Source: Psammoneis japonica
Taxonomy: Eukaryota
Direction: 5' to 3'
Assembly (NCBI GenBank): GCA_008632985.1
Contig: QPGO01000060.1
Coordinates: forward strand, 124,001 to 188,000
DNA: 64,000 nt
Made by a program: the position numbers and the translations under genes. Below, piece after piece: positions 2,621-62,690 of the stretch (position 1 is its first letter; each line of letters starts with the position of its first letter). The notes below the pieces were generated by a model. The model searched no databases and was not told the DNA's origin. It saw only the letters and a program-made list of their open reading frames with translations.

Positions 2621-3139
2621 AGGGAGCTTCAGCTAGAGTGTAATTGCTTGTGTCTTTTTCCTCCTATCAGCTCTTCATGCGTCAAGAGGAGGTACCCAGT
2701 AGCTATTGTTTGGATAGTTATCCGAATTTGCACTAATATCAGTCCACCGTGTTGCTGCAAGCGTAATCGCGGAGCACCAGCTCGCCCATTCCGTACTACA
2801 GGCGAGCATCGCTGACATGGTGCAGCGCGTTTCCATGAGACAGGCCTTGGGGCATACCTCCCCCGGCTTTAGGCCAGGAAAAGAAAGCAATGAATCACCC
2901 AATCAGGTGAAAGGGGTATTGTGAACGAAAACAGAACTGTCATCGCAGTCCATAGACGTACGCACGGAACAAGTAGCACGCAGATAAAAATTTCCATGTC
3001 GTGCTCCTAGTTTCTCTACTTGTTCATTGAAAAAAGGTTTCAAATAAGCGTGCATTTCAAAACAATGAAACGCATCAATGTCTAAAGTTGCCATTGAAGG
3101 TAACGTTGCCTCAAGAGCACCACAAAATGCATCTTGAGA

Positions 3140-5900
3140 GTGAAACATCACTCTAAAAATGTAAAAGGGGGGACATGATGTGGAGACACAAGAAAATTTG
3201 CAAGCCAACTGTTTGCTACCGGTGTAACATTTTGCCCCTTCCAGCAAATGCTCACTGTGTTGTGGCATTGCCAGCACAGGAAAAACCCCGACTCATCCTT
3301 CCCATCAAAGGTCAGATCCAAGTTGCAGCCTCCTGCTGCTTTGCAGACAAACACAATGAAGTCTTGGTTTGTTGGTTGACCAAAATTCAGTCAGTTGATT
3401 TTGGTGTTGAACAGGCAGGCCTTGCCAAACTTGCAACTGTGTGTTGTTGTCAACAGCTGTGTCAGGTCTTGTCTTTGTTTCAACATGTTGTCACTGCAAT
3501 TGGCTTCTGTGTTGGGGCCTGGAAAGTGTTTTGCCTTACTTGCAGGCTTTGTCAAGTCCCCTGGAAGCTTGTCAAGAAATTGGCTTATCTTCAGTGCTCA
3601 TTTTCCAGGCAACAACCACCATTTGTGAATCGTGGGTGGGACCATGCATGGTCCACACCCTCAGCCAAGGCTCAGGTTTGGGTGGCAGCCAAACATTGCC
3701 AGATGCCAATTTGGTGAGAAGTTTTTAAACAATTGTTGCCAATGCTGGGGCCAGAGTCACCAAATTGGGGGTTGGGTGTCAGCACATTGAAATTCAAAAA
3801 AGTCCAGAGCAGCTCACTTTTCACAAAGCGGCTGCAGCAACAATGACCACCAAGCAGGCTTTTGGCAACAACACACACATGAGAGGAGAGAGAGTGTGGT
3901 CAAGGTGACCAAAACTCCTCCCCCCCCATGGTTTGACACACAACAGCTTGAACAGACATTGAGTGCCTGCTTTTCATTCCCTCTGAGCAAAGAAACAGGG
4001 TTCATTTCCAAGGTGCACCTTCTGTGTTGAGAGCATTTGATGCCCACAGCAGTGACTGGCCATGCTGAGATGTCTGCAACAGGGTTTCCAAAGTGCAATG
4101 CAATGAGTGAGATTGTTTGCATCAGGAGGCAATGGAGCATGTGTCCATCTGCAACTGCAGCTGATGAGGACAACAAATGCCAACAACTGGAGGGGGATTT
4201 GCTGCTCAATGAGATGCTTCATCAAAGAACTCCAACACCATCCAGCAGCAGCCAAAAGAAACCCGGATGTTGACAGATTGACACAAACAATTGACAGCTT
4301 CCATTGACTGGCAAGAGGTTGAAAAATTGATGTCATGAACATCAGCACACAAAAATGATTAAAAGCCACAACATGGCTGATTCCAACACGAGCTGTTCAA
4401 TGTCGGTTGCATGCACCGACACCACCCGCCGGTGTTGCAATGCACAAAATGAACAAATGAGCCATGGCAGAGACCTTCATTGTCATTGTTGCTGCCAACT
4501 GCCCACTCTTAAATGCCATGCCCTTTTCTTGCAGCATGTTTTGCAGCAAGTTTCAGGCTTTGTTTCCTCTGCTGTGCTGTCTAAACTTTTGGCTCAGCCC
4601 CATCACTCTCTCAACTCATGTGCAATGCACACCCAGAAAAACAATGATGGAGCATCGCAGCAACCTTCCAAAACACAAAAAGTCAACAGGCAGCCCTTGT
4701 GCAAAACCTCAAAGACCATTTGCAGTCTCAACAAACAAAGGGGGTGCAATTGGTCAACAAACTGAAGCTTTCAAGGCCACCATGCAGTTGCTTGTTTGCA
4801 ATTCTAACAAGTCTTGGTGGGGCCAAAAACCATGAAAGGATTGTCCCAGAGAATTGTGTCACAACCCCACTGAGCCCCAGCCAAATTTTCCCCACCTCTG
4901 ATGCTTTGCTGTTTGAGCTTTTGCCTTGGCCCTGTCACTCTCTCAATTCGTGCACAATGCACACCCAGAAAAACAATCATGGAGCATGGCAGCAACCTTC
5001 CAAAAAGCACCACAATCACAATGTCAGCAAGGCAGCCCTTGTGCAAAACCTCAGAAAACATTTGCAGCATCAACAAAAGAGGGGCAATTGATCAATGAAC
5101 AAAAGCTCTCAAGATCACAAAGCAGTTGCTTGTTTGCAATTCTGACAAGTCTTGGTGGGCCAAAAACAATGGAAGGGCTGTCCTGGAGAATTGTGCTGCA
5201 ATTGCGTCGAGTCCCAGCCAAATTGTTCCTGCCTCTTGTGCTGTCCTGTTTGAACTTTTAGCTCATCCATGTCACTCTCTCATTGCACGCACTGCACACA
5301 TCCAGCAAAACAATCATGGAGCAGCAGCAACCTTGCAAAAAGCACAAAGTGAACCATGCGGCCCTTGCACAAAACCTCGGAGAACATTTGCAATCTCACA
5401 ACAAAAGGGGGCAATTGACCAACAAACAAAAGCCATGTCCAGGTTGCCATGCAGCCACTCCTTGACAATTCTGACAAGTTTGGCATGGCCAAAAGCCATG
5501 GAACGATTGCCCCAAAGAAATTTGCCACATCCCCCGGGCAAACAGGGCCAAGAATCTGTCAGAATCTCCTAACTTTCAAGAGGTTGCCTTGGCTGCTTTG
5601 AAGGTGGGTGTGCTCCACTGGGACATGGTCAAGCTGATGAAAGAAAAGTGTCATCAAAGCAGAGCATTGTCTTTCATTGGTCTCTTCAAGGGTGGGCTGA
5701 TCTGCAATCTTCAACAGGATGCTCTGCTGTGGACTCAAGATGACATCAAGCATTGTTTGGAGCACACAAACATTGGCTGGAGAAAAGTTGATGGTTTGCA
5801 ACATTCTTTGCCACCACAACAGTGCAAGAACAAAGAATGAGGCACACACTTGCCGCTGATTGTCCCCACAATTTCCCACTCAGTTTGCAGAGAGACTTGT
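3140..5900. mobile_element. Degenerate TpA/CpG-depleted block, probably decayed transposon or repeat DNA of unknown family
   Basis: TA and CG are nearly absent and TG/CA is abundant. Many short Cys/His-rich ORFs lack Tyr and no domain is recognisable. The composition matches the decayed copia at 53.5-60.7 kb. Confidence 0.5.
4545..5520 (+). repeat. Three diverged tandem copies of a ~335-bp unit
   Basis: 'TGCACACCCAGAAAAACAAT(G/C)ATGGAGCA...GCAACCTT' recurs near 4625, 4958 and 5293. 'GTGCAAAACCTC' and 'ATTCT(A/G)ACAAGT' recur at similar spacing. Confidence 0.8.
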
Positions 5901-15018: not shown

Positions 15019-15593
15019 TTTTCTTGAAGCCCACAGGAGTGAAACAGAGACCGCTTTGTTCAACTGAAAACAGATTAGACCTCAAGACTTGAATTAGAGC
15101 TCTATCGATTCCACAAAGTCTTCTTGTCTTCGTCTATTTTTGCTCTATGTTGAAGTCGCAAAATGTGGAATGATGACGAAAGAAAAGCACGTGCTGAGTT
15201 GTTTGGCTCTGAAACATGCGTAAAAAACTTCCCGCCAGTTTTTCTTGGGCCACTGGAACGTGCGCATTCAACGCATAGTACAAATCTTCGTAGATTTCAC
15301 GCAGGTAGAATGAAGTACATCGGAACCGCACATTTTCGTAGGACTGAAGGACGTACCGTACTGTTCAGGTTGTATGCGCATAAAAGACGCGCACACCAGT
15401 GCAATGTCGGACAGACGACGGCCGCACAATTGATTGCGCATTGCTTGCGATTCGCACGACAAATTGCCGTTCGACGCCGACGATGACGATGACATTTTCA
15501 GACGCTGATAGAGGACGACTTCGCAACATGCACTTAACACATTTTAATCAATTCCACTGTTATGAACACACACATGCAAAGAAAGTCCCCAGA

Positions 15594-15869
15594 TGACAGA
15601 AAATGAAGGCAAATGGCAAGAATTCAAACAACAACTCCTTGCTGCTGTCTAAATGGCAGATGAGTCTCCGCTCAGAGACCGTTACAGGAGCCGAAAGACG
15701 TGCAAGTTGGTATAATCGGGCTACTGTCATTGTTCTTGTGAGCCTTGTGGCTCAAAAGCAAACTGCATCGTGCGTGAACGCGCAGAACTAAAGCACACAA
15801 AACTGTGCACGGCAAACTAAACAGCGCGCGATGCTTCGCGCGCACCTAAATCCTGTTCAAATCCTGTCA
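15594..15869 (-). repeat. 3' LTR of the copia (hypermutated copy)
   Basis: It aligns without gaps to 22424-22699 with 13 substitutions. Confidence 0.97.
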
Positions 15870-18800
15870 CTCCCCAGTTTGCTTGAGGAGCCACAGAAAC
15901 AGATTCGACTTCGGATGGAATGAAGTTCCAGAACATGAGGGGGCGGAGAAGGTCCCAGATTTGGGAGCAACCCCAATGCTTGCTGAGAATGTCAGCAGGG
16001 TTGCGGGAGCCTTCGATGAATTGGAACTCAAGGCAACCAGAGGCAATTGCCTCACGCACACGGTGGAACGACAGTGCGGTGTGTCGCTTGTGTAACTTGG
16101 AGTGCGGGATGGTGGCACTGTCTACAACCGACTTGTTGTCACCGAACATGTGACTGACGTCACGGATCGGGACGCCAAGGTGGCGCAGGGTGATGCGCAG
16201 GTCGATGGTCTGCTCAACACAAGTCCTTGCGGCAACAAATTCAGACCCGCAGGTCGCAGTCTCCACGGTGGCTTGTTTCTTAGAGAACCAATCAGCCGGG
16301 AATTTGTTGAGGAAGTGGAGCATTCCCATGACAGAGCGTCCGGTGAGCATGCAATGGTGCAAGTTTGCATCGACGTAGTGGGTGGCAGTGACGAACTTGC
16401 CAAGGGGCGGTGGAGCGTCCTTCGGGATCATCTCTTCTGCTTCACCACACACGGAATGCATCCATTCACAGGCCGGAGCAGGGAGATCCGAACAGTCGGG
16501 CTCTTCCGTGCGAACGCGGAGAGCACCGTGTCGCATCTTGGAGAGGCACCCACAGACGCATTTGGCACGATCCAAGTGGCCTTGACGGGGCGCAGCTCGG
16601 AAGCTAGAGAGTGACATGACGGCCGTGGTGATGTCAATTCGACCAAGGGACACTGCCCATTGGAGTGAACCAACAAGAGACTGGAACTTGTGAATGCCAT
16701 CGGGTCCCAGCAGTTCGGAAGTGTCCAGTTCGGGGTGGTCACCCTTCTCTAGAGGTGACAGGGTGTTGGTGGCAGGTTTCTCCCCAAACAGTCGGGCACA
16801 GCTGTCGACCATGCGCTCGATGTACTTGCGCGGAGACAGGCACAAGGTTCCGTCGGGTTCCCGGGAAAAGTCGCAACCCAGATGGAACTCAATGGGTCCC
16901 GCACCCTTGAGCTTGAACTTGTGCTTTTCCGTGAGAGTGTCGACGAAAGATTGAGGGTCCTTCATGGCAATGGCGAGGTCATCCACATAAACGGCAATGT
17001 ATTCACAGTGGTCGCCGTTCCTGCGCATCCAAATGTCGGGTTCGGCGCGGCAGGGGAAGAAGCCTTCAGCTCGCAGGCAGTCGGCGAAGCGCTCGTGCCA
17101 GCGGAGACCGGAGCTGCGCAGTCCATGCAGTGCCTTGTGGATGACAAGGATGTGTCCTTCGAGTTTGCCGAACTCGGGTCCAGCTACAATGTAAAGCTTC
17201 TCCTTGGTGGTGGCTTCAAGGTAGGCATTGCCAATGTCGGTGGCCCATGTCTCCAACTCGTTGAGTTCGGCCAGGAAAATCATCAGCCGAAGGCCACGGA
17301 GGGAGACTACTCCGGAGTAGACACTGTCGACAGGTACGTCCGTGAGGTGCCCGTCGGCTACGAGTCGTGCCTTGTGGCGACCGTCGTGTTTCACATCGTG
17401 CGCTAGGTGCACTCGGATCTTCTTGCATCCCGCAGGAGGAGTGGAAGACTTGAAGGGCCCGCAGTCATGGAAGACTTCGTATTCGTCGAGTTGGTCCATC
17501 TCGAGATTGGTTGCGTCTCCCCACTTGCGGTTGCCGTTGCGTTCGTCTAGTGACATGGCGTGTTTGTAGTTCCGGGGAACTTCGCATCCACACTTGCAGC
17601 GGGGTGCAGTGCGGAAGGAGCGAAGCTTGGCTTGGTTGGCCATGCGAAACAGCTTCTTTTGGCGCCTCGCGATGGTGCGGAACCGCTTCCAGCCATCCGT
17701 GTCGAGGAGTCCGTTCTCTCGTGCATAGATGGCACAGGTGACGGGGTCGTCCTTGGCGATGATGGCAAGAGGCTCGGACGTGATCTCCCCACTTTCCCAT
17801 TCAAGCATGATGTTGTAGCTGGAGCCTTTCCAGGTTGGGTCGTGAGGCTTCAGAGGTCCTTCGTGTGACACGATGCATCGAAATTTCCAAACAGTGGTGT
17901 CTTCGTCTTCTTGCTCAATGTGATTCATGATGTCATTGCAGGCGAGGACTTCCTCGTATTCGTCATTGTTGACAGAGCAGACGAACTTAGTGAGCTCGGG
18001 ATTGCCATTCACTTTCCATTCGTGGTCTTCGACGGCCTTGACGATGCGAGCTCTGTGGCGTTGTCCATCCTCTTGTGGCTGCATGAGGAAGGTACGTCCA
18101 ATGATGTCTTGCGGATCGAAAACTGGCATCTTGGGTGTCCTGATCTCCCCATCAGGAGAGTCGACGGGGTTGTCGTCATGGCAAGATTTGATGATGGGTT
18201 CAGGTGGCTCCCCATCAGGAGGATCAAGACGCAGGTTTCGAACGGCAGGATCGGGGGTAGCGGAGCGGACGTTGGACCGGTAGAGGATCTTCTGAGTCTC
18301 GTCAGATAGAATCTTGAAGGTCATCTGGTGGCCGACGTGCTCAGCAATGCCAACGAAGCGTCCACGCAACTCACGGGATTCAGACGGCCAATCGGAGTCA
18401 TCGAGGTGGAAGTGCACGGGTTCCCACCAGTGAAAGCGAAGCAATGGGCTGATGTCCGGGGTGGAGCCAGTGAGAGTCTCGAGGGGCGTGCGCCAGTGGA
18501 GACGTGGGGACGCTGCATGGTTGAGCATGAAGCACACGCACATGAGCGCCAGCAGCCATGTGTGGGCGGGCGAACCAAAACGATCCATGACAGTGTTCGC
18601 CATGCGCTTCACGGTCTGGCATCGACGCTCGGCAAAGTTTTGGTGTTGCTGGTGAGGCTCACTTTGCCAGCTAGAGATGAAGAGGGCGCGCAGGATCCCG
18701 AGCACTTTGTTGCTGATCTCAACTTGAGCACGGTCGCTAATGAGTTTGGATGGGGCACCACGTGCACGGATCTGATCCTCGAGTGTGTTGACAAACTCTT

Positions 18801-21486
18801 TGTCCGTCTTAGTGCCGTAGACGTCAGTGACGGTAGACTCGGTGCCAACAAACAGTTGGGCGCTGGTGCAACCAGAGTCGACGGCCGGGGTGTCGGCACA
18901 AACGGTGTCAGTGGCGACAGGCTCGTTGCGGCGGTGCACATTAAGGGCGGGGTTGGGTGATTTGTAGGCCTTGCGAAGGTGTGTACCGGCGGGCATGCGG
19001 GCGTACTGCGTGGTGCAGTCAAAAGTACGACGGACCGTGTCGGTAGGTAGGAAGCCAAAGTAAGGCCGAAGAGACTCGAAGGGGGGGTCCTTGGGCTGCA
19101 CAGTGCGCTCCGGAGGTGTAACGTCATCGCCCTGGGGGCCAATCGCATGCAGATGACACTCGCAGAACACGTCGTCGTTCGGAATGAGGTGATCATCGAG
19201 GGCGGACGCGTGATCGGCAGACAAGGAAGCGGACAAGATGGTCTCGTTGACAACGACACGATGACGGTAGTTGCCGCATTCGTCAAACAGGTTGGCAGTG
19301 GGATCGTCCTGTAGGTCAGAGATCGCGTCGTACCACTGGTCGTCGTCAGTGACAGAGTGATCGAGGACGGAAGGGTCCCATGTGTCATCACCGGTGAGGA
19401 TGACATGGGGCAGGGTGTCCCATTCGGCGTCAGTGTAAGGTCGCATGGCAACATAAGGCAGGCCAGCCTTGATGTCAATGGGGATGACACAGCCATCAGG
19501 AGTGGCAATACGTTGCAAGCCGTTGGGCACCTTGACAGAGTGATCGTTGACATCCTGTTTGTGCCATTCGAGCTGGCCGCAGGAATGGATGGTCTTGCCC
19601 TTTCCCGTGCATGCGTGCTGATGGAGGATGGCGATGACGGGACCACGCTGGGTCTCAATGACGGCACCAGCGGTGACAATGGGGATGTCCACCAATTGAT
19701 GATCGTCAATGCCCTGAACGTCGACTTGGCGAGAGGTGCGTGCAATGACGCGAACGTTGTCGCCAGCAATGCCGCCGTTGGCCCCACGATCGACTAGAGC
19801 ACCAGTGCGTGTGGATCGATGAGCAGAGGCAGAGTAAATGACATTGTGGTTGTCAACGCGGCGGCAAGTGCGGCCGTTAAGCTCCATGTTATCTGCAGAA
19901 GCTGGCGGGGTAGAGGAAGCGGCGGATGGCCCCGGTCGACTGGCATTGGGGGCTTGGTTAGGAGACAACAGACGTTGCAGATCACTGGGTGGCAGTGGCT
20001 TGCGCTTGGTGAGGTGCGCCAGGATGGGATTGTCCGAAGTGGCGTCCACATGTGGGGCGGAGTCACCAGAGTCAGCAGGAGTCGTGTTGGACAAGTTGAC
20101 ATCACCGTCACTCCCAAGGTGTTGGTCGTGAAGGTTGGCCGTAACAGACTCATGGCAGTTGCTGGCTCGCGGATTGCGGGGAGGTGGACGAGAATGCTCA
20201 AGGATGATCGCCTTGGAGGAATCGGGCAACGAGTCCCAGAGCCGTTGGTGGTCGGGAGGGAGACGTCTCCATTGGACACCGGTGAGGCTGGGACCGCGGG
20301 TGCAGGCAGCATTGGCTTGAAGGACGTCAACATCGCTGTCAATGTCGTAGAACACATCGTCGGACGGTTCCTCGGAGCAGACGTCGTGTGCGTGTGTGGC
20401 GCGTCGGGGAGCTCGAGGTGTCGTCTTGGGTTGAAACGTGCTGTCGTACTGAGCTGCCGCGGAGAGGAGCAAGCCACAGCATTGATCGTATGTGAGGCTC
20501 TTGCCACTCTGCGTACGATGCTGATCAGCTTGGTTCTTGACAGCACGGAGTTCCTCGACAGGGTGCACGGCATTCTCGAGCATGACGCGCTTCTGTCCTT
20601 CAGAGAAGTGGTCACTGGCCGGGGTGAGTGCCTCGCACTTGCGCAACTGATCTTGCCAATGAAGGATGAACCCGTGGGTCGGACCTTTCCAAGTGCCATC
20701 ACCAAGACGCGCGGTGGTGAGGTACGTGAGCAGGGTGGAGGACTCGATGGATGCGCGGGTGGAGGCAAGCGCGCACTCAGACAAGGAGCGGCAGACGGTC
20801 TGTGCGTCAGAAGACCCCACATTTTCGCGAATGAGAGCCTTGCCCTTGTCGGTGAGAAGGATGTGTTCGAAGATGGCGAACATGTGCTTTTGCTGTTCAG
20901 CAAAGAGCAGTTTGTCTTCGGGGCTGGTCGGTTTGTACGACGAGTCTAGAATGCACTTGACGTCTTGGGCACGGGCTTGTGCCACAAGTGAGGTGTGCCA
21001 AGTGTGCCACTGCTTGTCGGATTTGAGAGCCGTGAAAGCGGTGGGATCACACTTGATGCCTCGCTTGAAGTCCCGCACCGGGTCGCGTGCCTTGGTCGGG
21101 TTGGTGACATGTGGAGGTGCAAGGGGTGAGCTGCCGATGGACACAGAAGACATGCAGTCGGGGCTGAGGCGGCAGGCAAGGAACTCGTCATGCGTGAACA
21201 AAGAGGAGTTGTTGGCAACGTCAAGACCTTTGTGTGCTTTAACAATGTGCAGACTGACCAGTGCTGCTAACATGTTCTTACAACCACGGGGCAAAGGGAT
21301 TGCATCAGTGCCGTTGTCGCACTCAAGCGAGTCGATTTGGGACGGCATGAACGTGAACAGTTCCTGACATGAGTCCGTGCCGTCTTGGGCCAAAGCCAAA
21401 CGAAGAGGACTCCCAGCACCTTGGGCAAGCACGGTTCCAACCACGTGCTCGAAACCATCGGTTTGTTGCTGGCGAGTGAGAACCAT
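15817..21486 (-). CDS. Copia gag-pol polyprotein (protease-integrase-RT-RNase H), open but with many Tyr>Cys/His changes
   Basis: ATG 21486. Motifs in copia order: protease LVDRGANGG; integrase ATDTV / SDRAQ / AERR; RT KARLVADG, DIGNAYL, YVDD; RNase H YVDANL, SEF, GDN, ADILSK. The stop codon lies inside the 3' LTR. Confidence 0.95.
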   Translation of the reverse strand: MVLTRQQQTDGFEHVVGTVLAQGAGSPLRLALAQDGTDSCQELFTFMPSQIDSLECDNGTDAIPLPRGCKNMLAALVSLHIVKAHKGLDVANNSSLFTHDEFLACRLSPDCMSSVSIGSSPLAPPHVTNPTKARDPVRDFKRGIKCDPTAFTALKSDKQWHTWHTSLVAQARAQDVKCILDSSYKPTSPEDKLLFAEQQKHMFAIFEHILLTDKGKALIRENVGSSDAQTVCRSLSECALASTRASIESSTLLTYLTTARLGDGTWKGPTHGFILHWQDQLRKCEALTPASDHFSEGQKRVMLENAVHPVEELRAVKNQADQHRTQSGKSLTYDQCCGLLLSAAAQYDSTFQPKTTPRAPRRATHAHDVCSEEPSDDVFYDIDSDVDVLQANAACTRGPSLTGVQWRRLPPDHQRLWDSLPDSSKAIILEHSRPPPRNPRASNCHESVTANLHDQHLGSDGDVNLSNTTPADSGDSAPHVDATSDNPILAHLTKRKPLPPSDLQRLLSPNQAPNASRPGPSAASSTPPASADNMELNGRTCRRVDNHNVIYSASAHRSTRTGALVDRGANGGIAGDNVRVIARTSRQVDVQGIDDHQLVDIPIVTAGAVIETQRGPVIAILHQHACTGKGKTIHSCGQLEWHKQDVNDHSVKVPNGLQRIATPDGCVIPIDIKAGLPYVAMRPYTDAEWDTLPHVILTGDDTWDPSVLDHSVTDDDQWYDAISDLQDDPTANLFDECGNYRHRVVVNETILSASLSADHASALDDHLIPNDDVFCECHLHAIGPQGDDVTPPERTVQPKDPPFESLRPYFGFLPTDTVRRTFDCTTQYARMPAGTHLRKAYKSPNPALNVHRRNEPVATDTVCADTPAVDSGCTSAQLFVGTESTVTDVYGTKTDKEFVNTLEDQIRARGAPSKLISDRAQVEISNKVLGILRALFISSWQSEPHQQHQNFAERRCQTVKRMANTVMDRFGSPAHTWLLALMCVCFMLNHAASPRLHWRTPLETLTGSTPDISPLLRFHWWEPVHFHLDDSDWPSESRELRGRFVGIAEHVGHQMTFKILSDETQKILYRSNVRSATPDPAVRNLRLDPPDGEPPEPIIKSCHDDNPVDSPDGEIRTPKMPVFDPQDIIGRTFLMQPQEDGQRHRARIVKAVEDHEWKVNGNPELTKFVCSVNNDEYEEVLACNDIMNHIEQEDEDTTVWKFRCIVSHEGPLKPHDPTWKGSSYNIMLEWESGEITSEPLAIIAKDDPVTCAIYARENGLLDTDGWKRFRTIARRQKKLFRMANQAKLRSFRTAPRCKCGCEVPRNYKHAMSLDERNGNRKWGDATNLEMDQLDEYEVFHDCGPFKSSTPPAGCKKIRVHLAHDVKHDGRHKARLVADGHLTDVPVDSVYSGVVSLRGLRLMIFLAELNELETWATDIGNAYLEATTKEKLYIVAGPEFGKLEGHILVIHKALHGLRSSGLRWHERFADCLRAEGFFPCRAEPDIWMRRNGDHCEYIAVYVDDLAIAMKDPQSFVDTLTEKHKFKLKGAGPIEFHLGCDFSREPDGTLCLSPRKYIERMVDSCARLFGEKPATNTLSPLEKGDHPELDTSELLGPDGIHKFQSLVGSLQWAVSLGRIDITTAVMSLSSFRAAPRQGHLDRAKCVCGCLSKMRHGALRVRTEEPDCSDLPAPACEWMHSVCGEAEEMIPKDAPPPLGKFVTATHYVDANLHHCMLTGRSVMGMLHFLNKFPADWFSKKQATVETATCGSEFVAARTCVEQTIDLRITLRHLGVPIRDVSHMFGDNKSVVDSATIPHSKLHKRHTALSFHRVREAIASGCLEFQFIEGSRNPADILSKHWGCSQIWDLLRPLMFWNFIPSEVESVSVAPQANWGVTGFEQDLGAREASRAV

Positions 21487-22412
21487 GGCAGACAAAAAAT
21501 GGTGTCAGGACAATCAATTCTGGTTGGGAAGCGAAGGCAGACTCGAAACTTGGGTGAGAATGGACTTGACTTGAAATGGACTTGACTTGAAATCTTGAAC
21601 TATCTTAAAATCAGAAGTCGCCGGGCTTTGTCATCCCATTCGTTGTTGAGTGCTAAACTTCCCATCCGGTCCGTAGAGTTGTGCCGGCACGTCCGAACCC
21701 GCAGCTGGCGGCGCTTTGGGTTGCTTGCGAGCAGAGTAGCGGGTTGTAAACCCCTGCAGGTAAGCTGACTGGAGGTGGACAAGACCCCCGAACCGTTCTT
21801 ATTTTATGTCGGTTGGATTTCCCGATCAGGCTGGCCAGTTGACGCAGGCGTTGGGCGCTGTGGACGAACGAACAAACGCGGGAAAGCACCCTCGCCCCAA
21901 CGCAGGCTGCAATCACGGCTGCTTGCTCTCACAGTCGTCCTCGTGGACCTAGTAGAACTGTAGAGCACCAGCAGTCCGGGGTAGATCAGGTACAATGGAC
22001 TCGGTGTGCTTGTAGAGTGGCAGCAAAACCGCAGTCCGAAGAGTGGGTACAGGTTCTTGGCCGTGAAGATATGTATATATATATATGTCTTCAGCAACGA
22101 AGATCCTTGAATATGTAGGGTTCTTGACCGTTAACCGATGAATAGGTATATCAAGGGATGAGGATCAAGGATAGACTTGGATATGACCGTTGAATGTATG
22201 TCTTCAGCGATCGAAGGTAGTATAATCAATCCAGATATCCAGCGGTAAGGAGACTTGACGGTGACGTTAACTTCCTGCCGATGCCCTGGTATTGAATGCG
22301 CGTAGACTTGCCGATGTATGTAGAATATATACGGAGGTCCACGTAGAATTAAAAAGTCGTTGGTAAATCAACGACGACGATGGCGGTTGCTCAATGGGTT
22401 GACAATGAGCAA

Positions 22413-22423
22413 GACTGTTAATC
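22413..22423 (-). promoter_or_regulatory. Candidate primer-binding site complementary to a tRNA-Asn(GTT) anticodon arm
   Basis: The plus strand reads GACTGTTAATC immediately inside the 5' LTR, which is an Asn anticodon stem-loop sequence. There is no TGG-type PBS. Confidence 0.55.
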
Positions 22424-22699
22424 TGACAGAAAATGAAGGCAAATGGCAAGAATTCAAACAATAACTCCTTACTGCTGTCTAAATAGCAGATGAGTCTCCG
22501 CTCAGAGACCGTTACAGGAGCCGAAAGACGTGTAAGTCGGTATAATCGGGCTACTGTTATTATTCTTGTGAGCCTTGTGGCTCGAAAGCAAACTACATCG
22601 CGCGTGAACGCGCGGAACTAAAGCACACAAAACTGTGCACGGTAAACTAAACAGCGCGCGATACTTCGCGCGCACCTAAATCCTGTTCAAATCCTGTCA
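22424..22699 (-). repeat. 5' LTR of the copia (retains TA and CG)
   Basis: It aligns without gaps to 15594-15869. Confidence 0.97.
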
Positions 22700-22704
22700 C
22701 CAGA

Positions 22705-25700
22705 CGAACTTTTCTCTCAATTGTCGTTCGACAATGGAGAGCATCAAACAATGGAAAAAACAGAGCTCGGCATTGTGTGATGTTTGCTGTCAAGCAGAGG
22801 TTGCTCACGGGGACTTGCATGACTTGACACATTCTTAAACTCAATGGACTGAATGTCTGCAAGAGTGAACAAAAGACTCTGGGGCATGTCTCTGCCATCC
22901 CTGTCGTCTCACGATGACGCACAAACTTCATGTCACCGATTTTTGGTGATGAGGCACGCAGCGCTCCAGGCATTTCTCACAGAGCAGAAAATCCTGAAAA
23001 ATCATGTCATCATGCCTTCACCCCTTTGTTCTGCGATGGCCTTAAATCCTCCCAATTTGGGACAAATCGAGGGATTTGAAGACAAACGCATGTCCATCGT
23101 TTCCATCAACAAATGTCCGCGATTTCAAATCAAAAACCTGCCCTCCCAACCAGGTTGTGCACATCAACAAGTTGGTGACAAAGCAACATTCCATCTGTGT
23201 TTTTCTGACTGACATTTGATCACTTTGCTTGTTTTCCAAAATCTTGATTTGTGGTGCATGTTTGCACAATTCAACAATGCAAGCATTTGGTTTGCACCGC
23301 ATTTTTACAACTGAATTTTTCAATCCCTTGTTGCTCTCCAGTTCATTTGTGACTTCCTTCAAAGCAGTCATGAGCTCCTGTGTCTTCTGCTCTGTTTGCA
23401 CCTTGTTCATGTTCTTGTTTTGACTGTCTCATGATTTCTCCCTTGCCTCCTTGAACTGGTTTGCCAGCTCCTGCACCACCCCTTGTGTTCCATCATCTCT
23501 TCTGGGTCTTTTTCCAACCAGGTGAATGTGCTTGAGTTGTTGTCTGTGTCCTTGCCTTCTTCTCTGCAATGACAAGCTCTGGCAGGATCCTCTCACAGAA
23601 GTCTTCTCCCCTGGTTGGGTTTCCTCCATTGTCCACCTCCACATCACAGTCTGAGCCAAAAGAGCTGTCCTTGTTGTTGCTCTTGCACACTCTGCATGCC
23701 ACACATCAAAGTTGTTCTTCAGGAGCATGTGGGCAAATGCTTTGGCACATGATGTGCCCATCCTTGTCTCCCAACCATTCTCTCCCACTGCTGGTTGCAA
23801 GCAACAGGCAGTTGCAGAACACCGTGTGCAATGCAGGGTTGGACAAACGCTCGTGGAATCTTTCCAGCAATGACAACACACAATTGTTTTTTGTGGCAAG
23901 TGCAAAGCTTTGTGCAACAAGGAATGCATCAACAACAATGTCAGTGTTTGTCTTGCTTGTCAACGCTGCTGGCCACACACTCTCACTGTGGCTGCAATTG
24001 GTCCTGCTGAGCCTGGTGAGCATTTGATTGCTTCAGTGCTGGCCACTCCTGATGCATTCTTCCTTTCTTCATTTTCATCCACAGAAAATGCAGGCATGAA
24101 GTTTGTTGCACCTCTGGAAGCTCCAACAGAGAGCATTCTGCATTCCATCCATCAGCACTGGTCCACAGTGCTGGGCAAAGTCTTTGTGCAGCATGCTCAT
24201 TTCCTCCATCTGCCTTTCAACAAACACAAACATGATGCTGAGAAACACCTTTTCTTTGACATGGTCTCTCACCTTGATTTTGCTGCATGCCCTGCCATCA
24301 TTGGCCATCCACTCAGCTGGGTTCACTTGCCTCTGGAATGTGGTTGTCATGATTTGGTTGGCACTTGGTTGTGTGGTGTTTTTTGCAAAGCTCACCTTTT
24401 GCTTGTCAGTCATCTTGTTGCCAGGGTTCACCATTGCAATCTGATCTCCTTTACAATCAGCCAATGCTCCCAGGTCAGGTGTGCATTTGAGCCTTCTTGA
24501 GATTGAAAATCTCCACACAAGCACCCACATTGTCATGTGTGGACAACATTGGCATGGAAATGCTCATGAAGTCCAATGCCTCCTGGGTTCAGTTCTCAAT
24601 GCGTGGATGCAAGTCCAGCAGAAAATTGTGCCTGTGCTGCAGCCAAAGAGTCAACCACTTTGGCAGGAGGAGATTGATGCTGACTGAAAAGAAATCTTCA
24701 ATGAGTTTCCCACCTCCCGGGTCAAGCAGCAGTGCACATGGACCACTTTGAATGCAAAAAAGCATTTGTGTTTTTGCCTCATGAAACTGGCAAAGTTTCG
24801 CCACATTCGCCACTGCTGTGGCCAAATGCAGCATGTCACACAAACATTGGCAAAGAAACCACACCCAACAGCCTTTGCATTGTCATCAATTGCACCTCTC
24901 CTGCTGTGGAGAAGGTGTTGCTGTCTTCAGCAACAAGATCTTTGCTTGGCAATGGAGTGAGAAGGTTCTGTCTTTGTTCTTCCGCAGTGAGGCATCACCA
25001 TCATCCTGAACAGACACACACCAAAATCTTCTTTAGCCTCATCAGCCAGCCCACAGTGGTCTCTTGTTGTCATTTGTGATGGTGTTGTGCAATGGTGTTG
25101 CAAAGCATCCTCACATGGTGCAGTGCACACTTCAAGAGTTTTGCACTCAGAAAAGGCGTCAGGGGCAATGTTGTCATCCTTGGAGCAACCCAGCATTTGC
25201 TGCTGAGTTTTCATCATGCAGGACATTCTGTGCAATGACACAGGGTGTTGTCAGGGGCAGGTTCTGTAATTCTGCCATTTTCTTGGTCAGATTCTTGAGA
25301 AGTTTGCACGGGAGTCCTCTTGCACCTTTGTCACTTGTGTGGATCACTCCTGGCAGCATCGCATTTGGCTGTGGAGCCACCATGCCCACATTTGAGCTGT
25401 TTCAATCATGCCAGTGGATGCTTGAGGTGCTGAGCCATGTTCCTCAATGGAGCTCTTGTAGGGCAGTCATGGCCATCGACACACTGTGCAATTCGTGCTC
25501 TCATCCACACCTGCTTCCTCTGCACTGTTCAACAAGAATTTGCCATGCCAAGAGAAAAACACTGAGGAGCACGCGAAACATTGTTCTGGTGTTTTGGATG
25601 GCACTGCCACATTCACAGCACACTCGGTCGAAACATGCTGTTTGTGCAGATGACCACTCTACACAGGGCAATGTCGGTTGTCTGCATCGGCACGTACTCG
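22705..25700 (-). mobile_element. Decayed TpA/CpG-depleted element, possibly a DNA-transposon remnant, with the copia inserted at its edge
   Basis: TA and CG are nearly absent. Broken minus-strand fragments ('VRDHVKEKVF', 'AFAHMLLKNNFDVW', 'GWKK') resemble diatom TE accessory ORFs, but the family could not be assigned. Confidence 0.5.
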
Positions 25701-53508: not shown

Positions 53509-56500
53509 TGTCAGTCGACCTGCGCTGGCTGCTGTGTGTGTGTGGCCAGACCACTGTTTGCAGATGATGATGGCCAGGAGGCATCTGGGTTGGACAGATG
53601 AGTTGAGATCTGCTCTTCTCTCACTCTTTCTCACCAGCGCACATGTTGTCACTGTCACTGGTTTGCAGGGAGGAACCTTGTGCTTGTTGCTCTTGCTCCT
53701 GTTGCTGCTTTGTCACTGCCAGGTTGTGGCCTTGTCAGAGAGGTCGTCATTCTTCTGTGCTGCAACTCCCATCGTGATGCACACTCGGTTTGTGAGCTGA
53801 GCAAGCCTGCTGCCATTTTTGATCCTGGAAGTGATTTTTTCATCAGTGCACAGCCCCACAGACCAGCACCAGGTTTCTGTGTGTTCATGACTGAAAATTT
53901 GGTGCACCTCCAATCAAAACCATGTTGCATTTGACCCCCAAGAAGCCCTTTTTAAAACCATCACAAAGAGAATTTTTCTGTTGTCTTTGCACAACATGCT
54001 TGAAACCAGGAAGTCATCAAACACTTCAACAGCCTTTGCAGCAGCATTGATCAGGGTTGATTTTTTGATGATCCAAGGCATGCAAAGCTGTGGACAACAT
54101 TGTTGATCTCATGAAGGAACACATCCTTGCAGAGCTCATCCTCCCAGAAACCCTTGACCCCCTGCTGCCAACTCACCACTGCCAGTCACATCACTCTTCA
54201 GAAAGGCATCCCTCAATGTTGCCAGCAGCCTTGCATCTTCTGACTGAGCATCATCTCATCTGTCCTGACAGAGATGATGGATCACAAAATCAAGAAGGAT
54301 GCCCTTCAGGCTGACTGCACCAAGGTGATTGTCACTTTGTCTGCATCTCACATCTCCACTTCTCCCCCACTGTGCAACATGCATTCAGGGACCCAAGCAA
54401 TTTTTTCATGCCACGTGCCCACAAGTTTTTGCTCTCAAGACTCTGCCAGCATTGTCCACTGCTTCAGGCTCTCTTGACATCTCCGATTTGATGGACGCAC
54501 TGAACAACAACCTTGCTGCATCAAAAGCACCCCCCGCTGCAGGTTCTGGTGACACTGAGACCCCTGCTGCCATGACCTTGTCATCCAAATTTTTGTTTGG
54601 CCCAGATGCCCTGCCTGAGGACACATGTGAGCATCTTGACAAAAAGGTTGCTGCTGATGAAGTCATCATCAAGAGTTCCTCATCAACCCTGTGCTGGTGG
54701 AAATCCATGCAATCTTGGCATTCTTGATCATCTCATTCTTGTGGATGGTTTGCTGTTTGTGATGCAAGCTGTCCCAGACCACAAATCTCTTCTTCAAAAA
54801 CACAGCATTTCTCATGATGACTCACCACACGGTGTTCATCAATGGCATCAGAATTTTCAATGTCATGCTGGTGTTGACTGTGGCCATTTTGTCCACCCCT
54901 TGTGGTGTTTCAACAAGAATTATTTTGGCAACTGGGGGTTTGCTGTTGGCAACACTGCTGCTGATTTTTCCCAGTGTGTGCACATTCATTGCATTGGTGC
55001 AACTTGCATGCTGTCAAACCTTCTGTCGCTGCACATTGTGGCTTTCTGCTGTGATGTGATGGGTGACAAGCCTTGAAGCAAATCCTTTCTGATGCAGACC
55101 CCACATTCTGTGTGACGAAGCTGTTGGTCTTGTTGACTGTCACCCACGACAAGGCAACACCTTTCTCTTCCAGACCACTGTGCCCAATTCAAGGGTTTTT
55201 GCAGCTGCATGCCTGCATCTTTGACACCAAGTCTTCACTGAACAATGAAAGGGAGATGACTGTTTTCATCAAGGACACAAAGTGCTCCAAATTTTCAACT
55301 CATTTGACATGCTCAGAATGCTGTCAGCCTGTTGACACAAGTGCACTGATGACCAAATTTTCTTCTTTTTTGCATCAGCCCAATGGCCCCATTGCCACTG
55401 AGTCAATGCTTTGGTGCTTGGACCATCTCTGGAGTCTGGCAAGTCTCCAACCAGCTCTTGCCTGTGGCACATGATCCCCTGGTTGATGCAGTTGCATTGC
55501 AAGAAGACTCTTTTGACACCCTGTGTGGTGAACTGGCACATCTTGATGTCACACCCAATGATGGAGATTGCCTTTGCATCATTTGCACATGGCATCTGTC
55601 TTCAAGATCAAGGTTGCTCCCAATGAAGCCACCAAATGTCCATGCTTGGCATGCGCTGGCGATCATCTTTTTGATGATTGCCCCATCCTCCAGAGTGACC
55701 CACGCATCAAGGGTTTTCACATTTGATTGTGAAGCAGCACAACATGCCTCTGCTTTTGCTGGCTCCTGGGAAAACTTGCCTGCCAGACAGAATGGGCCTG
55801 CTCTTTCACCATCTTAAAATCCTCTGGAATTGAGGGCCATTGCAGCTGATCTCAGATCCACAATGCTGCCCCCACCTTCTTCCCACTGAGACAACACAGA
55901 TGATTGCAGGGGGCAACTGTGAAAGAGTGGCTGTCCATTCCATCATTGTCCACTCCAAAGCCTCTTTCTCCAGCAGATGATGTGATGCCTGGTGCTGCTC
56001 CTCTGACTTCTTTGGGGAACCTCCAACGTCAACAAGCTGTGCATGACAATCCCAGGGCACAAAGTGTTGATCCAGAGGGAGGGCTCAAGAGCAGGGGAGA
56101 GCAGAGGAAGATGCTGAGCAAGACTTGGAACCATTCAGTTTGATGGCACTCTTGGCTCCTCAGCTGCACTCAACTCTGTGTGCATCTCACCAACTGCACC
56201 TGCCTGGGTCTTGTGCCTTCCATCACCTGCAACGCTGACCATGAATCTTTGAAGGTCAGCACCATCCAGTTTGACCCTAAAGAATGTTGTGCTCAGTCAG
56301 ACACTGGCAAGCATGCACCCTGCACTGTGGCAAAAGGACCTTCTCCACTCATGCCAACTGTTCACCCCAGACAACCCACACCCACTCCAGGTCAACCCAG
56401 CCCCATCTTGGTGTGAGTGCCATTGACCACCATGGTTGCAGTTGTTTGTGTGCACCTGCTGAGACCACCAACAAAGGGCATGTTGCTGTGCATGAAGCTT

Positions 56501-59500
56501 GCTGCTGCCATCCCCAACTCTGGCCCACCTTGATTGATCAATGAGTTCCATGTGCCACCAAGGGTGGACACAAGAAAGACTGTCCAGTTGATTGCTTGCT
56601 GAAGTTCCATGACCTTGGAACATGAGAACACATTGAAAAGCATTGTCTTTGATCCAGTCAAGATGCTGTGGTCAATGAACAACATGTCAATGGAAAATGT
56701 TTTGCTCATCCTTTGATCCCACTGGAATCTGATGATGACTTGGATCTTGCCATTCAGGAACTCAGTGAGGATGATCCCACTTTTGCAAAAGAATGCGAAC
56801 CTGTTGCCACCCACATGATCAACACCTGCTGCAAAGAAAACAAGCACTGTGCCCTTCAGGAGGAAATGAAAAAGATTCCAAGGGCTTGCCAAGGCATTCT
56901 GTTTGATGCTTGCATGAAAAAGAACAGGTGCCATTGCACGCAACCCCTCAAGGCTGATGCTGAATGTCTCCCCTGGCACCAGCACCTCAGCCACCCCCAG
57001 CAATCGTGTCCTGTGTCTCATGCCCACAGGGACATTGGTGGTGTCCCAAGTTTGCCCATGGTGTGCCCTCCCTTGTCACCTGTCCAGCTTGCATTTGCAC
57101 CAAACAAAGAACAAAGACACCGGCTGGCCCCAATTCCACTTGGGCTGCTGCTCAGTCATGCGCCAAAGTTCAATGGTGGAATTTTTGTTCTCTGGTCTAA
57201 AGTCAAAGGACAAAGAGTGCACAAAGAATTGTGTTGGTCCAAATTTTGTGACCTGTTGGATCACAGTGCATGATGACTTTGCTCACCACCACCTCCATGG
57301 TGAAACCCACATTTCCAAGGCATCTCCTTTGGACTGGCTTTTTTGATTCTTAAATGAGCATTCACCAAAATGTCCAGACAAATGGATCAGGGTGCTGATC
57401 CCAAGGTTTGGCAACTCTTTGAGCAAGACTTCCAACATGCACTCAGACCCACTGGCACGGATGCCTCCAACCAGAACAGTCCCACAGAATGCAGTCATTT
57501 GACCATGGCTGATGTGATCCAGGTGATGCTCATCAAAGCAGACCTCCCCACAAAATTCTGGCCCTGTGCTTTTCATCAGCCACTGGTGCATCCAGATCAA
57601 GAAGAGTGCCATCCCCTCCAAGGGTCCGAGTGTTGCACCCATTGCTGCTGCTGCTGCTGCTGGCAAGGTTGACAACTTCAGTGCATTCCACACCTTTGGC
57701 TGCCACATTTGGGCATGTTCTTGCTTTGATGCTCCAGTGGCAAGTTCCACTCTGTGTCTCAGAAAGGTTTCTTCCTTGGCTGCCTGCTGGGCATGACCAA
57801 GAACATCCTGTGGTGCAACCCTGCATCCAGGCATCAAGACTGCTGCCAGGCATGTTTGCATGATGAGGGTGTGAATGACCTCCAACAGGATGAGACTTGT
57901 CCCCCAAACATTTGGCACCATTTCCACCAACTCAGAATGGCAAACCTTTTCCTGCTAAAGACAAGGAGACAACCATTGACAACTTCTGTTTCATGGGAAA
58001 CCATTTGCAGAGACCCTTCTTGAGCACAACATGAAGCACTCCATTGCTGATCCTGCATTTGGGCTGGACTTCAAAATGGATGTGCAGTGCAGTCAGGTGC
58101 ATGTGTTGGGTGTCAAGCATGGCAGCTCTGTGCCCCATCTTTTCTCATCATTGCTCAAAGCCACCAAGTGCTGCAAGATCTTGGGTGCTTGCATTGTGTT
58201 GATTGATGGCATGGATGTCTTTGCCCAAGATCAAGCCTTGGCTCTGAGCTCTGACATCTCCATGTGACATGGACAACCCAGATTTCAAGATTGTGTTTGC
58301 TCCTGAATGTTGTCTCTAATCATGTGAGCTGGAACATGCTTTGGTTGAGCACAGCATTTTTGCTTCATCCCCAGATGACAAGGAAGAACATGTCCCTGAT
58401 CTCACCACCATGGATGTGCACGCCATTGCTGCCCTGCAGTTTCTTGATGTTGATTTCTCCCCTCTCAATGAATGTGAGCTGGATTCACTCCCAACTGTTG
58501 ATCATGAGAATGGTGCTGCATTCAACATTTTTGTGATTTCTTCCCATGCCATCACCCCAAAAGAATGTGAACTTGATGGTTTTGCTTGCGGTCACCTTGA
58601 GAAGCTCCCTGCTTGGCCACAATGGCATGGTGAATTCAAGCAATTGGACCAGTGCCCACTTCCATCTGCTGGGAATGTTTGGTGCTCCCATCCCATGCCC
58701 CAAGAACACTGTCACATGGTGGCCCCACTGGCAACACACAATGCAAAATCAGGTTGCACTCAACAGCCCCAATGCTGTTGTGAGGGTTCACCCCGAGCTG
58801 CTCCTGCTCTCCACTGCCTGCAGTCTACACACTTGTTGTGTGTCAAGCAGCCAATCCAACAGTTGCTTTTTGCACTCTCTGCATCAATGGGACATCAAGT
58901 TCATTCTGGTGATGCTCAAGATGCCTGTGCACACTCTTCAAAACCATCTGCTCTGGTTTGTGTGCAGGTTGATGAGACCTTTGCTGCATGGCACAAGTCA
59001 CATTTTGGTGTTGACCTGGATCACTCCATTGTCCCACCAACTCTCAATGCCTTGCAGGGTCACCCAGAATCTGCCACATTGACCAGTGCCAAGCTCCTTT
59101 TTCACAACAGAACACATGACAAGTGTGTTTGCACTTCTGCCTTTCAGAGAAAGTGCACTCTCTTGCTCCAACAACAGGTTGATGATTTCTCCATTGTTTG
59201 CCTGGAGGAATCACGTGTGATGATCAAGATCTTCAATGAACTCAGTGCTGCTCCACAACTCCCCTGTGAGGACTCCACTTCTTTCAAGCATCTTGACTCA
59301 TGTGTGGACTGGAGCTCTTCAATGGTGTTGACATTCATCAGCATGATGATTCCATGTCTGTTGCATGTCATGGCTGCATTGAGGATTGGGGACTGACTTC
59401 ATGTGGTTGGATCACCCTGTCTGCTGACAAATCTGCCTCTGACTGCCAGGCCATGCTGATGCCAGTGGAATCAGTCTCCTGGTTGTGCTCTGATGTTGGT

Positions 59501-60710
59501 CACATTGAAGGAGATCTCAAGAACATGCAGCCAGAATTGAAGGAGGCTCAAGGAGGTTTTGGACATCGAGACCTGCTTGGTGAGTTGTTGTGTGTGCATG
59601 TCATTTGCCGCCTTGACATCGGCTGTGCTGTTATGACCCTTTCCAAGTTTGTGGTGTCTCCTGCTCTGGTGCACTGCGTTGCATTGAAAGGGATTGCCAG
59701 CCCTCTTCACTGCATGAAGTGTTGGGATGTCAGCTGCAAGAAGCCCATCAAGGACTCAACTTTGCCTGTGCACCCCCACAAACAACTTGAGGCAGACCCA
59801 ACTCTCTCTTTGTTCCCATCAGCAGATTCTCTTGCACAGCTGCTTGCTTTCTTGGATGCATTCTGCAATGACCTTCATGACCATTGCTCTGCCACTGGCT
59901 GTGGTTGCATGATGTCAGCCAGTGAGGCAGTTCCTTGCCATTGCAAGACAAAAATGGTGGCTGCGACCAGTTCCATGAAGGCTGAGTGAGTTTTGTGTCA
60001 CTCACTGGCACCACTGCAAAACATGTCCTGTGCCTGCAATGATCAGTCCTCAAGAAGCTTGGTTGCCCCCTCAAGATGATGCCACTCCTCTCTTTGTTGA
60101 CAGCAAATCAGTGCCATCAAGATCACCAACAATTGTGTTCCCACCAAGCAATCTTGCCACATTGACATCCAGTGGTTTGTCATCCAAGACTGGAAAGAAG
60201 ATGGGGGTGCCATTGCCAGACACATCCCAGCCATTGTCAACCCCAGCGATGATCTCACCAAGGCTGCTCTTGGTTTGATGCCACATGCCCATCATGCTCA
60301 CCAGCTCATGGGATGCTGCCACTGAGTCTTTTGTCCTGACTCTGAATGGCATCTGCTGAATTGCCCTTTTTGTGTTTTGTTCTCTTGTTTGTTGGTCATC
60401 TGGTCTACATTGCTCTGGAGACCAACTGCTGTCTTCCCTTTCATTCTGTCTGTGATCTGCACTGCCTTTTTAGACATGCTAGATCAGAGGAGGGTGTCAG
60501 TCAACCTGGTCTGCTGCACACGGTGCCAGACTGTTTGCAGATGACAGCCAGGCATCTAGACCAGACAGACAAGCAGATCTCTCTGAGATTTGCTCGTCTC
60601 ACTCTTTCTTGCTGGCACCCATGTTGTCACTGTCACTGGTTTGTGGGGAGGACCCTTGCACTTGTTGCTCTTGATTTGCTGCTCTGATGGCTGCTGTTTT
60701 CTCACACAGT
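53509..60710 (+). mobile_element. Heavily decayed Ty1/copia element (frameshifted, Tyr-depleted)
   Basis: Diverged LTR-like repeats start TGTCAGTC(G/A)ACCTG at 53509 and 60495, the latter after the purine tract AGAGGAGGG; both contain CATGTTGTCACTGTCACTGGTTTG. Relics: integrase (MDQG...PTGTDASNQN...KFWPCAF, ~57370), RT (GSPRAAP, GDAQDACAHS, LQGHPES, QVDDF, ~58780-59190) and RNase H (LLGELLC, HIDIQWF). The LTR 3' ends are approximate. Confidence 0.85.
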
Positions 60711-62094: not shown

Positions 62095-62690
62095 AACGCA
62101 GATTCTTAAAAATCCTCATTCCCCAAAACGGTCATTTTTAAGGATGGATCGTCGAGATGAGGTCTCTTTACGCGCGAGCTCGCATTTTTTGGAAAAAACC
62201 CGGATTTCTCGTGCTGGATGCGCGCGCTCGCCAACAAAATATTTTCAGCGATAGGTCGAACTTTGTCCCTTCGAAAGACATCATAGAATGTGTTGGCGAT
62301 GGTTGTGACCATGCGCGATCTTTAGCTTGACGACTGTAGATGTGTCCACAGCCAGTCAAACGCCAATTGTCAGCTTTTCCTGGAAAGTTGTGGCTTGTCT
62401 CCCACAAGCAGTGCGATTTTGGCCAAAAACAGCGGTTCATCGCATGTGACAACTGCACCGAATCCGACAATTGGCGTTTGAAGGTTGAAATGTGTAGTTC
62501 ACATACAGATCTAACAGCCCTGATGGGGGCTGGACACAGTCACATGTGTTTGGGGGTGCTCAGAGGCATCGCAAAATGACGCGGGCGAAGTGCGGGGAAA
62601 TTGCAAAACCACGAGCTAATTGAAAAAACACCTCATCTAGACGATCCATCCTTAAAAATGATGCCGTTAATTTTTGAGAATCTGTGGTCG
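62095..62690. mobile_element. Segment bounded by inverted repeats (MITE-like or transposon end)
   Basis: 62132-62163 and 62630-62661 are reverse complements at 31/32 bp, with weaker extension outward. Confidence 0.55.

Follow-up and report, generated by a model that had tools for sequence, protein, structure and literature searches.

We analysed a 64,000-nucleotide stretch of the genome of the diatom Psammoneis japonica (hereafter the window: contig QPGO01000060.1 of assembly GCA_008632985.1, positions 124,001 to 188,000 of the forward strand, numbered here from its first letter). It contains a long methionine synthase gene and, roughly 0.5 kb upstream of this gene and in the same orientation, a single complete insertion of a Ty1/copia-type long terminal repeat (LTR) retrotransposon, with 276-bp LTRs and a 5-bp target duplication. 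The LTRs are direct repeats of the form TGACAG...CTGTCA, bounded by TG...CA and 95% identical to each other; the same five bases, CCAGA, flank both, and the two therefore belong to one complete insertion. The element carries a gag-pol open reading frame (ORF) whose first ATG lies at 21486 and which ends in a TAG stop codon at 15817–15819. A profile made from the homologue alignment described below matches the retroviral integrase chains 3jca_A and 7usf_A weakly at its positions 911–1016 (E = 0.003–0.004), and the Pfam family rve was not detected in the ORF even at E ≤ 1. A tblastn search with three homologues found no second copia copy within the window. An earlier note on this DNA, made from its letters, had read the element against copia/CoDi motifs; we take the CoDi label as presumptive, and the features tested here are those of Ty1/copia only.

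The same note had claimed that this frame has systematically lost tyrosines to cysteine and histidine while staying open, and had listed ten short peptides as examples, together with three in which cysteine would have replaced arginine. All these strings are present in the translation of 15817–21495 (minus strand), which runs without an internal stop. We aligned the ORF with 60 of 120 listed homologues (unnamed, mostly metagenome proteins; the longer ones were chosen from P0001–P0079 and are 51–62% identical to the ORF). At the 36 columns with tyrosine in at least 80% of these homologues, the window has tyrosine 15 times, cysteine 15, histidine 4 and phenylalanine 2, so that 58% are changed, compared to 0–18% of the conserved columns of the 19 other residue types (55 of 718; Fisher p = 1.3e-13). 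Cysteine or histidine thus accounts for 19 of the 21 changed conserved tyrosines, a replacement that the relatives do not share: at these 21 columns they have either residue in 10 of 1260 cells, and across all 36 columns no homologue reaches more than 2, against 19 in the window. The homologues therefore give no sign of the refuting case that the earlier note had named, cysteine or histidine at these positions in active relatives too. Loosening the threshold to tyrosine in at least 30 of the 60 homologues gives 59 columns, at which the window has Y 21, C 22, H 9, F 6 and W 1. The shift is also visible in overall composition, with 1.43% tyrosine in the ORF compared to at least 3.03% in all 120 listed homologues, and 2.91% cysteine compared to at most 1.61%.

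The residues flagged by the earlier note as normally tyrosine are so at ten positions, with tyrosine in 54 of the 60 homologues at C866, 41 at C959, 46 at C1300, 51 at C1302, 51 at C1357, 60 at H1457, 58 at C1749, 59 at H1772, 42 at H1782 and 55 at C1843. The claim did not hold for C1304 (F 44, Y 15), H1366 (F 35, Y 25) and H1713 (M 27, Y 21). Between residues 59 and 1843, lost and kept tyrosine columns are intermixed without any gradient along the ORF, which argues against a time gradient of reverse transcription, and the bases flanking lost and kept tyrosine codons show no clear preference. The tyrosine of the catalytic YVDD motif is intact.

To assign a direction, we compared the codon at each of the 76 changed conserved columns with the closest codon that encodes the consensus residue. 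Tyrosine is ancestral in the outgroup alignment, and TAY>TGY/CAY is therefore a loss of TA, as the earlier note had argued from the codons. The changes comprise 18 TA>TG, 4 TA>CA, 4 CG>TG and 4 CG>CA, in addition to 26 other single-base and 20 multi-base changes, which are the ordinary divergence expected at 51–62% identity. TA>TG/CA also occurs across codon boundaries, as at T994A and T1532A, both of which follow a T. The CG component, which the note had read from its three arginine-to-cysteine strings, is real but weaker in the ORF: CG>TG or CG>CA makes up 8 of the 76 conserved-column changes, and of 83 majority-arginine columns 4 are changed (cysteine 3, glutamine 1). Among the cysteines in question, C149 stands where 58 of the 60 homologues have arginine, C1207 where 55 do and C1105 where 27 do.

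The LTR pair gives the direction a second time, in non-coding DNA. At 277 aligned positions the two repeats differ at 13, all of them transitions, and at every one the 5' LTR has TA (9) or CG (4) where the 3' LTR has TG or CA. Differences outside TA and CG dinucleotides are absent (p about 4e-8 for 13 of 13 within the 74 target bases among 277). Measured against the 5' repeat, its 3' counterpart has lost 9 of 17 TA (53%; T>C 5, A>G 4) and 4 of 20 CG (20%). The intact 5-bp target duplication shows that a single insertion gave rise to both LTRs, which were then identical, and their differences therefore arose after it. The proportion of TA lost from the 3' LTR is also that of the conserved tyrosine codons that now read cysteine or histidine (19 of 36, 53%), which fits an erosion of the whole ORF after insertion. 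Copies of the family that carry TA, TG and CA at shared sites, presented below, are a third line of evidence for the same direction.

The loss is locally confined and stops inside the element (Table 1). Its border falls between a TA at 21279 and a TA at 21601, near the start codon, and beyond it the 5' untranslated region (UTR) and 5' LTR have observed-to-expected TA ratios above those of Pfam-annotated host ORFs (0.52), the methionine synthase ORF (0.60) and 13.7 kb of unannotated host DNA (0.67, with CG at 1.03). With the direction of the changes given, a distribution of 13 hits to the 3' LTR and 0 to the 5' LTR has p = 7e-5. The 5' end may have been spared by a border of chromatin or targeting, or possibly by gene conversion from an unmutated copy. 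Outside this genome, a scan of metagenomes gave a lone related locus, a contig of 2352 bp (L001) with 49% identity to the element, which has a CG ratio of 0.24, a TA ratio of 0.60 and 3.7% tyrosine; its TA is normal, which shows that elements of this kind are not TpA-eroded in general. A scan of viral contigs for related element DNA gave no match.

Table 1 Features of the retrotransposon insertion and of the converted regions in the window. TA and CG values are observed-to-expected ratios; counts are given in the order TA/CG/TG/CA.
Feature	Position	Strand	Remarks
Block B1, fully converted	3100..5900		TA 0.07, CG 0.14; counts 14/21/281/348; ~330-bp tandem units inside
Target-site duplication CCAGA, left copy	15589..15593		Identical 5 bases adjoin both LTRs
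3' LTR, TA-eroded	15594..15869	-	8 TA and 16 CG remaining; TA 0.45
Purine-rich run, sense AAACTGGGGAG	15870..15880	-	Directly upstream of 3' LTR; polypurine-tract-like by sequence, putative function
gag-pol ORF, 1892 codons counted from TTG at 21495	15817..21495	-	No internal stop; TA 0.25
Reverse transcriptase domain RVT_2, residues 1356-1565	16801..17430	-	Pfam PF07727, E = 1e-26, 94.5 bits against a cut-off of 31.6
Approximate integrase catalytic core, upstream of reverse transcriptase	18436..18933	-	Weak profile match
5' UTR, uneroded	21496..22423	-	49 TA in 928 bp; TA 0.83
5' LTR, uneroded	22424..22699	-	17 TA, 20 CG; TA 0.90
Target-site duplication CCAGA, right copy	22700..22704		Same 5 bases at both LTRs
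Flank adjoining 5' LTR, TA nearly gone, CG kept	22705..23130		2 TA, 17 CG; TA 0.06, CG 0.76 (measured over 22701-23130)
Block B2, fully converted	23130..25400		TA 0.03, CG 0.10; counts 4/13/268/267 in 2271 bp
Block B3, fully converted	53600..61700		TA 0.03, CG 0.09; counts 16/42/986/901 in 8101 bp
Partly converted block, runs past window end	62500..64000		TA 0.11, CG 0.50

Mapping the window by a 1-kb dinucleotide profile and finer maps revealed three blocks, about 13 kb together, from which TA and CG are nearly gone and in which TG and CA stand at about 1.7–2.1 times expectation. Their sequence is complex, not low-complexity, with a GC content of 47–49%, and in B3 both strands together hold 453 TGA but 14 TAA and 14 TAG trinucleotides. 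The borders of converted regions are sharp at 200–400 bp resolution, and the host DNA is unaffected. In the intermediate stretches 22701–23130 and 62500–64000 TA loss runs ahead of CG loss, and in windows near 3100–3500 and 60100–60800 the order is reversed; that both orders occur suggests that the TA and CG losses are two processes. The element appears to be an early stage, and blocks B1–B3 look like the end state. None of the 57 block ORFs of at least 90 aa matches a mobile-element family of Pfam, the only matches being a sub-threshold one to TMEM126 and one to LRR_6 at a block edge, and a blastn comparison of the blocks gave nothing beyond their own tandem units and two short matches, between blocks or within one.

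Tandem repeats occur at two places in the converted DNA, at 4570–5540, with units of ~330 bp and ~77% identity, and at 63190–63730, with shorter units of 71–77% identity. Among the units in B1, 23 of 43 adjacent double-transition differences oppose TG to CA, as would be predicted if an ancestral TA or CG had resolved independently into TG or CA in each unit.

That the frame stays open follows in part from the chemistry of the change. Neither T>C nor A>G can yield TAA, TAG or TGA from a sense codon, and TA erosion therefore leaves a frame open. The earlier note's claim that the erosion adds no stops thus stands strictly for the TA component, but the CG component can close a frame through CGA>TGA, and 19 CGA codons remain in the ORF. 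Simulations on the ORF agree: with hits on TA only, limited to the 67 TA present, it was open in 2000 of 2000 runs, and with 150 hits spread over TA and CG sites, a CG loss above that observed, in 4%. After 150 random transitions it was open in 1.9% of runs and after 150 random substitutions of any kind in 0.9%, and 150 CpA>TpA hits of the kind made by fungal repeat-induced point mutation (RIP) never left it open.

Sequencing reads from four runs of one sample, matched at 80% likeness, show that the window's copy is one of many. Summed word depth over the element reaches about 66,000–195,000 compared to about 60 in single-copy flanks, and although such a depth does not translate into a number of copies, it marks the family as clearly very abundant. 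Variable places in run X1 are mostly transitions (A>G 128, T>C 127, C>T 84 and G>A 76), with 89 transversions. Among the 40 places listed of 511, 5 in the left flank were dropped, and 29 of the other 35, which lie inside the element, oppose TA or CG to TG or CA. At 17318/9, for instance, the window has TA and other copies have CA (59%) or TG (17%); at 16152, where the window reads TG, A takes up 80% of the depth; and at 18620/1 (residue 959, tyrosine in 41 of 60 homologues) the window has TGY, for cysteine, where at least 76% of the depth has CAY, for histidine. Phases at paired sites are not part of these figures, in which double and single changes are therefore not always separable. Contigs of 31-mers at depth 60–76 reproduce block B2 with 0–1 differences; the conversions are therefore present in the reads and do not come from the assembly alone.

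Two further variants were seen in the family: about 47% of the depth in run X1 has a one-base deletion at 21494, and one contig runs directly from 15762 into 22667, the structure of a solo-LTR-like copy located somewhere in the genome.

We consider it likely that the Ty1/copia element inserted once and was then converted in place at TpA across its ORF and 3' LTR. A DNA-level process acting on both strands after insertion would have turned about half of the TpA in these two parts into TpG or CpA and left the 5' UTR and 5' LTR untouched, with CpG>TpG/CpA much rarer, at roughly 5–20% of sites. All tyrosine codons contain TA, and such erosion would read as Tyr>Cys (TGY) or Tyr>His (CAY). With 19 conserved tyrosines replaced, it is plausible from the alignment that the Pol protein is disabled. 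By analogy with the chlorarachniophyte alga Bigelowiella natans, the agent would be a targeted, enzyme-driven defence, most plausibly the adenine deamination at TpA proposed for that species, and the CpG loss would be ordinary decay of methylated CpG.

Several observations weigh against so simple a history. On the sense strand of the ORF, TA>TG outnumbers TA>CA by 18 to 4 (p = 0.004), a bias that a purely strand-symmetric DNA process does not predict and that possibly reflects exposure of the non-template strand linked to transcription, a contribution of RNA-level editing, or selection. Tyrosines invariant in all 60 homologues are kept at 8 of 13 columns and those at less conserved columns at 13 of 39, and this contrast of raw counts hints at some purifying selection. 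Many derived states are common to most copies of the family (90% of the depth at 18281, for example), and a master copy mutated beforehand may have handed some of the losses down. The 13:0 difference between the two LTRs and the abruptness of the border would be explained equally well if an unmutated copy had overwritten the 5' end by gene conversion. The four runs are probably the source of the window's assembly and so not independent of it, and polishing of a long-read assembly with multi-mapping reads could blend copies, which would weaken copy-specific figures such as the 53% match.

The rival that draws most on these observations holds that the tyrosine losses pre-date the insertion, having accumulated in a transposing mutated master lineage or through adenosine-to-inosine RNA editing, which prefers an upstream U, and having been fixed by reverse transcription, with any in-place process minor. 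The sense-strand bias, seen also as 15 cysteines to 4 histidines, fits it, as do the many derived states at 52–90% of family depth and the retention of the invariant tyrosines, that of YVDD included. Reverse transcription gives identical LTRs, yet the 3' LTR has lost TA on both strands, and RNA editing cannot account for T>C on the sense strand. Moreover, the family-wide variants are strand-symmetric in A>G and T>C, and low-copy blocks without a retroelement signature are fully converted. We regard this history as unlikely, if the most serious of the rivals. An untargeted, genome-wide mutation bias of TA>TG/CA and CG>TG/CA, under which unconstrained DNA would drift to such a composition, could draw on the lowish background TA ratio (0.52–0.67) and on TG and CA above 1 everywhere. 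It is very improbable, as the 13.7 kb of unannotated host DNA keeps its TA and CG, the converted blocks have sharp borders, and the 5' LTR and UTR are intact while the 3' LTR lost 13 of 37 target dinucleotides; in addition, the LTR pair has no ordinary substitutions, which would put the TA rate far above background.

Modified bases cause systematic errors in long reads, and in so hugely repeated a family polishing could mix copies, both of which would favour an artefact of assembly, polishing or base-calling. The match of the 31-mer contigs to block B2 at single-copy depth speaks against it, although these come from the same sample and are not independent, as does the presence of TA, TG and CA alleles at the same family sites within a run. 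A base-calling error would, furthermore, neither split cleanly into TG and CA nor respect an LTR border, and we give an artefact very little weight, less than the untargeted bias. Least credible of all, to the point of being negligible, is an adaptive or neutral replacement of tyrosine by cysteine and histidine in a functional subfamily. The open frame and the intact YVDD are what it would expect, but the non-coding LTR has undergone the same TA>TG/CA change, as have sites across codon boundaries, and none of the 120 listed homologues shares the shift in composition. In-place conversion after insertion thus remains our preferred account of the element.

The closest known system is that of B. 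natans. According to the main text of a recent preprint (Mettrop et al. 2026, bioRxiv 10.64898/2026.01.13.699255), two viral regions integrated in the genome of this alga mutate about 1000 times as fast as the rest of it in mutation-accumulation lines, with 230 of 231 changes being A>G or T>C and all these 230 on TpA. Its genome holds 124 TpA-poor clusters rich in CpA and TpG, reverse transcriptase and DDE domains are enriched in TpA-poor coding sequences, and the authors suggest that an ADAT2-like enzyme deaminates adenine in the DNA; enzymes of the ADAR and ADAT types favour U or T before the edited A (bioRxiv 10.64898/2026.01.13.699255). The words CpG, diatom, tyrosine and stop codon are absent from the main text of the preprint (bioRxiv 10.64898/2026.01.13.699255).

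As far as that main text goes, the two cases share changes that are almost all A/T>G/C transitions at TpA and give TpG or CpA depending on the strand, bordered regions, foreign or mobile DNA as the target and a TpA-poor footprint rich in CpA and TpG. In the window, 9 of the 13 LTR differences are TpA transitions, with the other 4 at CpG, and 22 of the 76 conserved-column changes are TA>TG/CA. The conversion is likewise confined to delimited regions; for B1–B3 the ORFs lend no support to a mobile origin, with 0 of 57 matching a mobile-element family. Unlike the integrated viral DNA of a chlorarachniophyte that the main text of the preprint describes, the target here is an abundant LTR retrotransposon in a stramenopile, the erosion stops inside the element, and the old blocks are also depleted of CpG (CG 0.09–0.14, with 4 of 20 CG lost from the LTR), a component that may well be a process separate from TpA loss. 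The evidence here is also comparative only, with 13 target-site and 0 other differences between the LTRs as an indirect indication of the rate, whereas the rate in B. natans was measured in mutation-accumulation lines.

Other systems share some of these features. RIP acts mainly by CpA>TpA, raises TpA and AT content and creates stop codons. With RIP of ascomycetes the element has in common a dinucleotide-specific, transition-only, local, in-place mutation of repeated or mobile DNA, but the direction is opposite: RIP is described as C:G>T:A mutation (PMC2621366), whereas here TpA is destroyed, GC is not falling and no stop appears in 1892 codons. APOBEC3, on minus-strand cDNA, and ADAR, on double-stranded RNA, likewise hypermutate retroelements by base deamination. 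They act before integration and on one strand and leave the LTRs identical, whereas here the LTRs differ at 13 target sites with both T>C and A>G, even if the ORF retains its strand bias. The CG>TG/CA changes resemble the decay of methylated CpG in silenced transposons, at about 5–20% in the element and near completion in the old blocks, but CpG decay leaves the TA loss unexplained, and in the element the TA loss is the faster process.

Literature searches, and terms looked up in some papers on diatom transposons, gave no report of TpA erosion in diatoms; of what they turned up, only the B. natans preprint describes the signature. The tyrosine loss is real and well outside what chance would give, and the earlier note read it essentially correctly. 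It is the visible part of a local, TpA-erasing (and CpG-erasing) hypermutation in a diatom, with a signature otherwise reported from one 2026 preprint on a distantly related alga. More broadly, and only tentatively, we entertain the possibility that diatoms direct a sharply bounded, TpA adenine-deaminating defence at integrated mobile DNA, which together with CpG decay would yield TA- and CG-free, stop-poor transposons, a missense mirror image of fungal RIP. As the same signature was measured in a rhizarian alga, such a system would be ancient within the SAR (stramenopile, alveolate and rhizarian) supergroup.

If TpA-directed hypermutation operates in diatoms as it does in a chlorarachniophyte, many marine protists probably have it. 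Because diatoms can be transformed and their genes knocked out, the responsible enzyme could be sought in them. For annotation, the activity of long intact transposon ORFs in such genomes cannot be assumed, and fully converted relics evade homology-based repeat annotation, as the 57 unmatched block ORFs illustrate, while holding many spurious long ORFs, as TAA and TAG are lost. LTR divergence gives no valid date of insertion where, as here, hypermutation accounts for 13 of 13 differences.

A scan of 20 host ORFs in the window showed none with a deaminase fold. Nearby host genes include two related to chromatin, an ISWI-like one with HAND and SLIDE domains and an NSD-like one with SET and PHD domains (30800–32449 and 42962–46369, respectively). 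In the methionine synthase gene (6171–15081, minus strand), the homocysteine-methyltransferase and pterin-binding modules each occur twice, and because named diatom homologues are about 2100 aa long this duplication looks native and not an assembly error. A protein atlas gave bacterial clusters only for this synthase. Its best named relatives, which mark the host as a diatom, are diatom proteins of Nitzschia, Epithemia, Corethron and Proboscia with 81–84% identity, and those from green algae and dinoflagellates have 45–49%.

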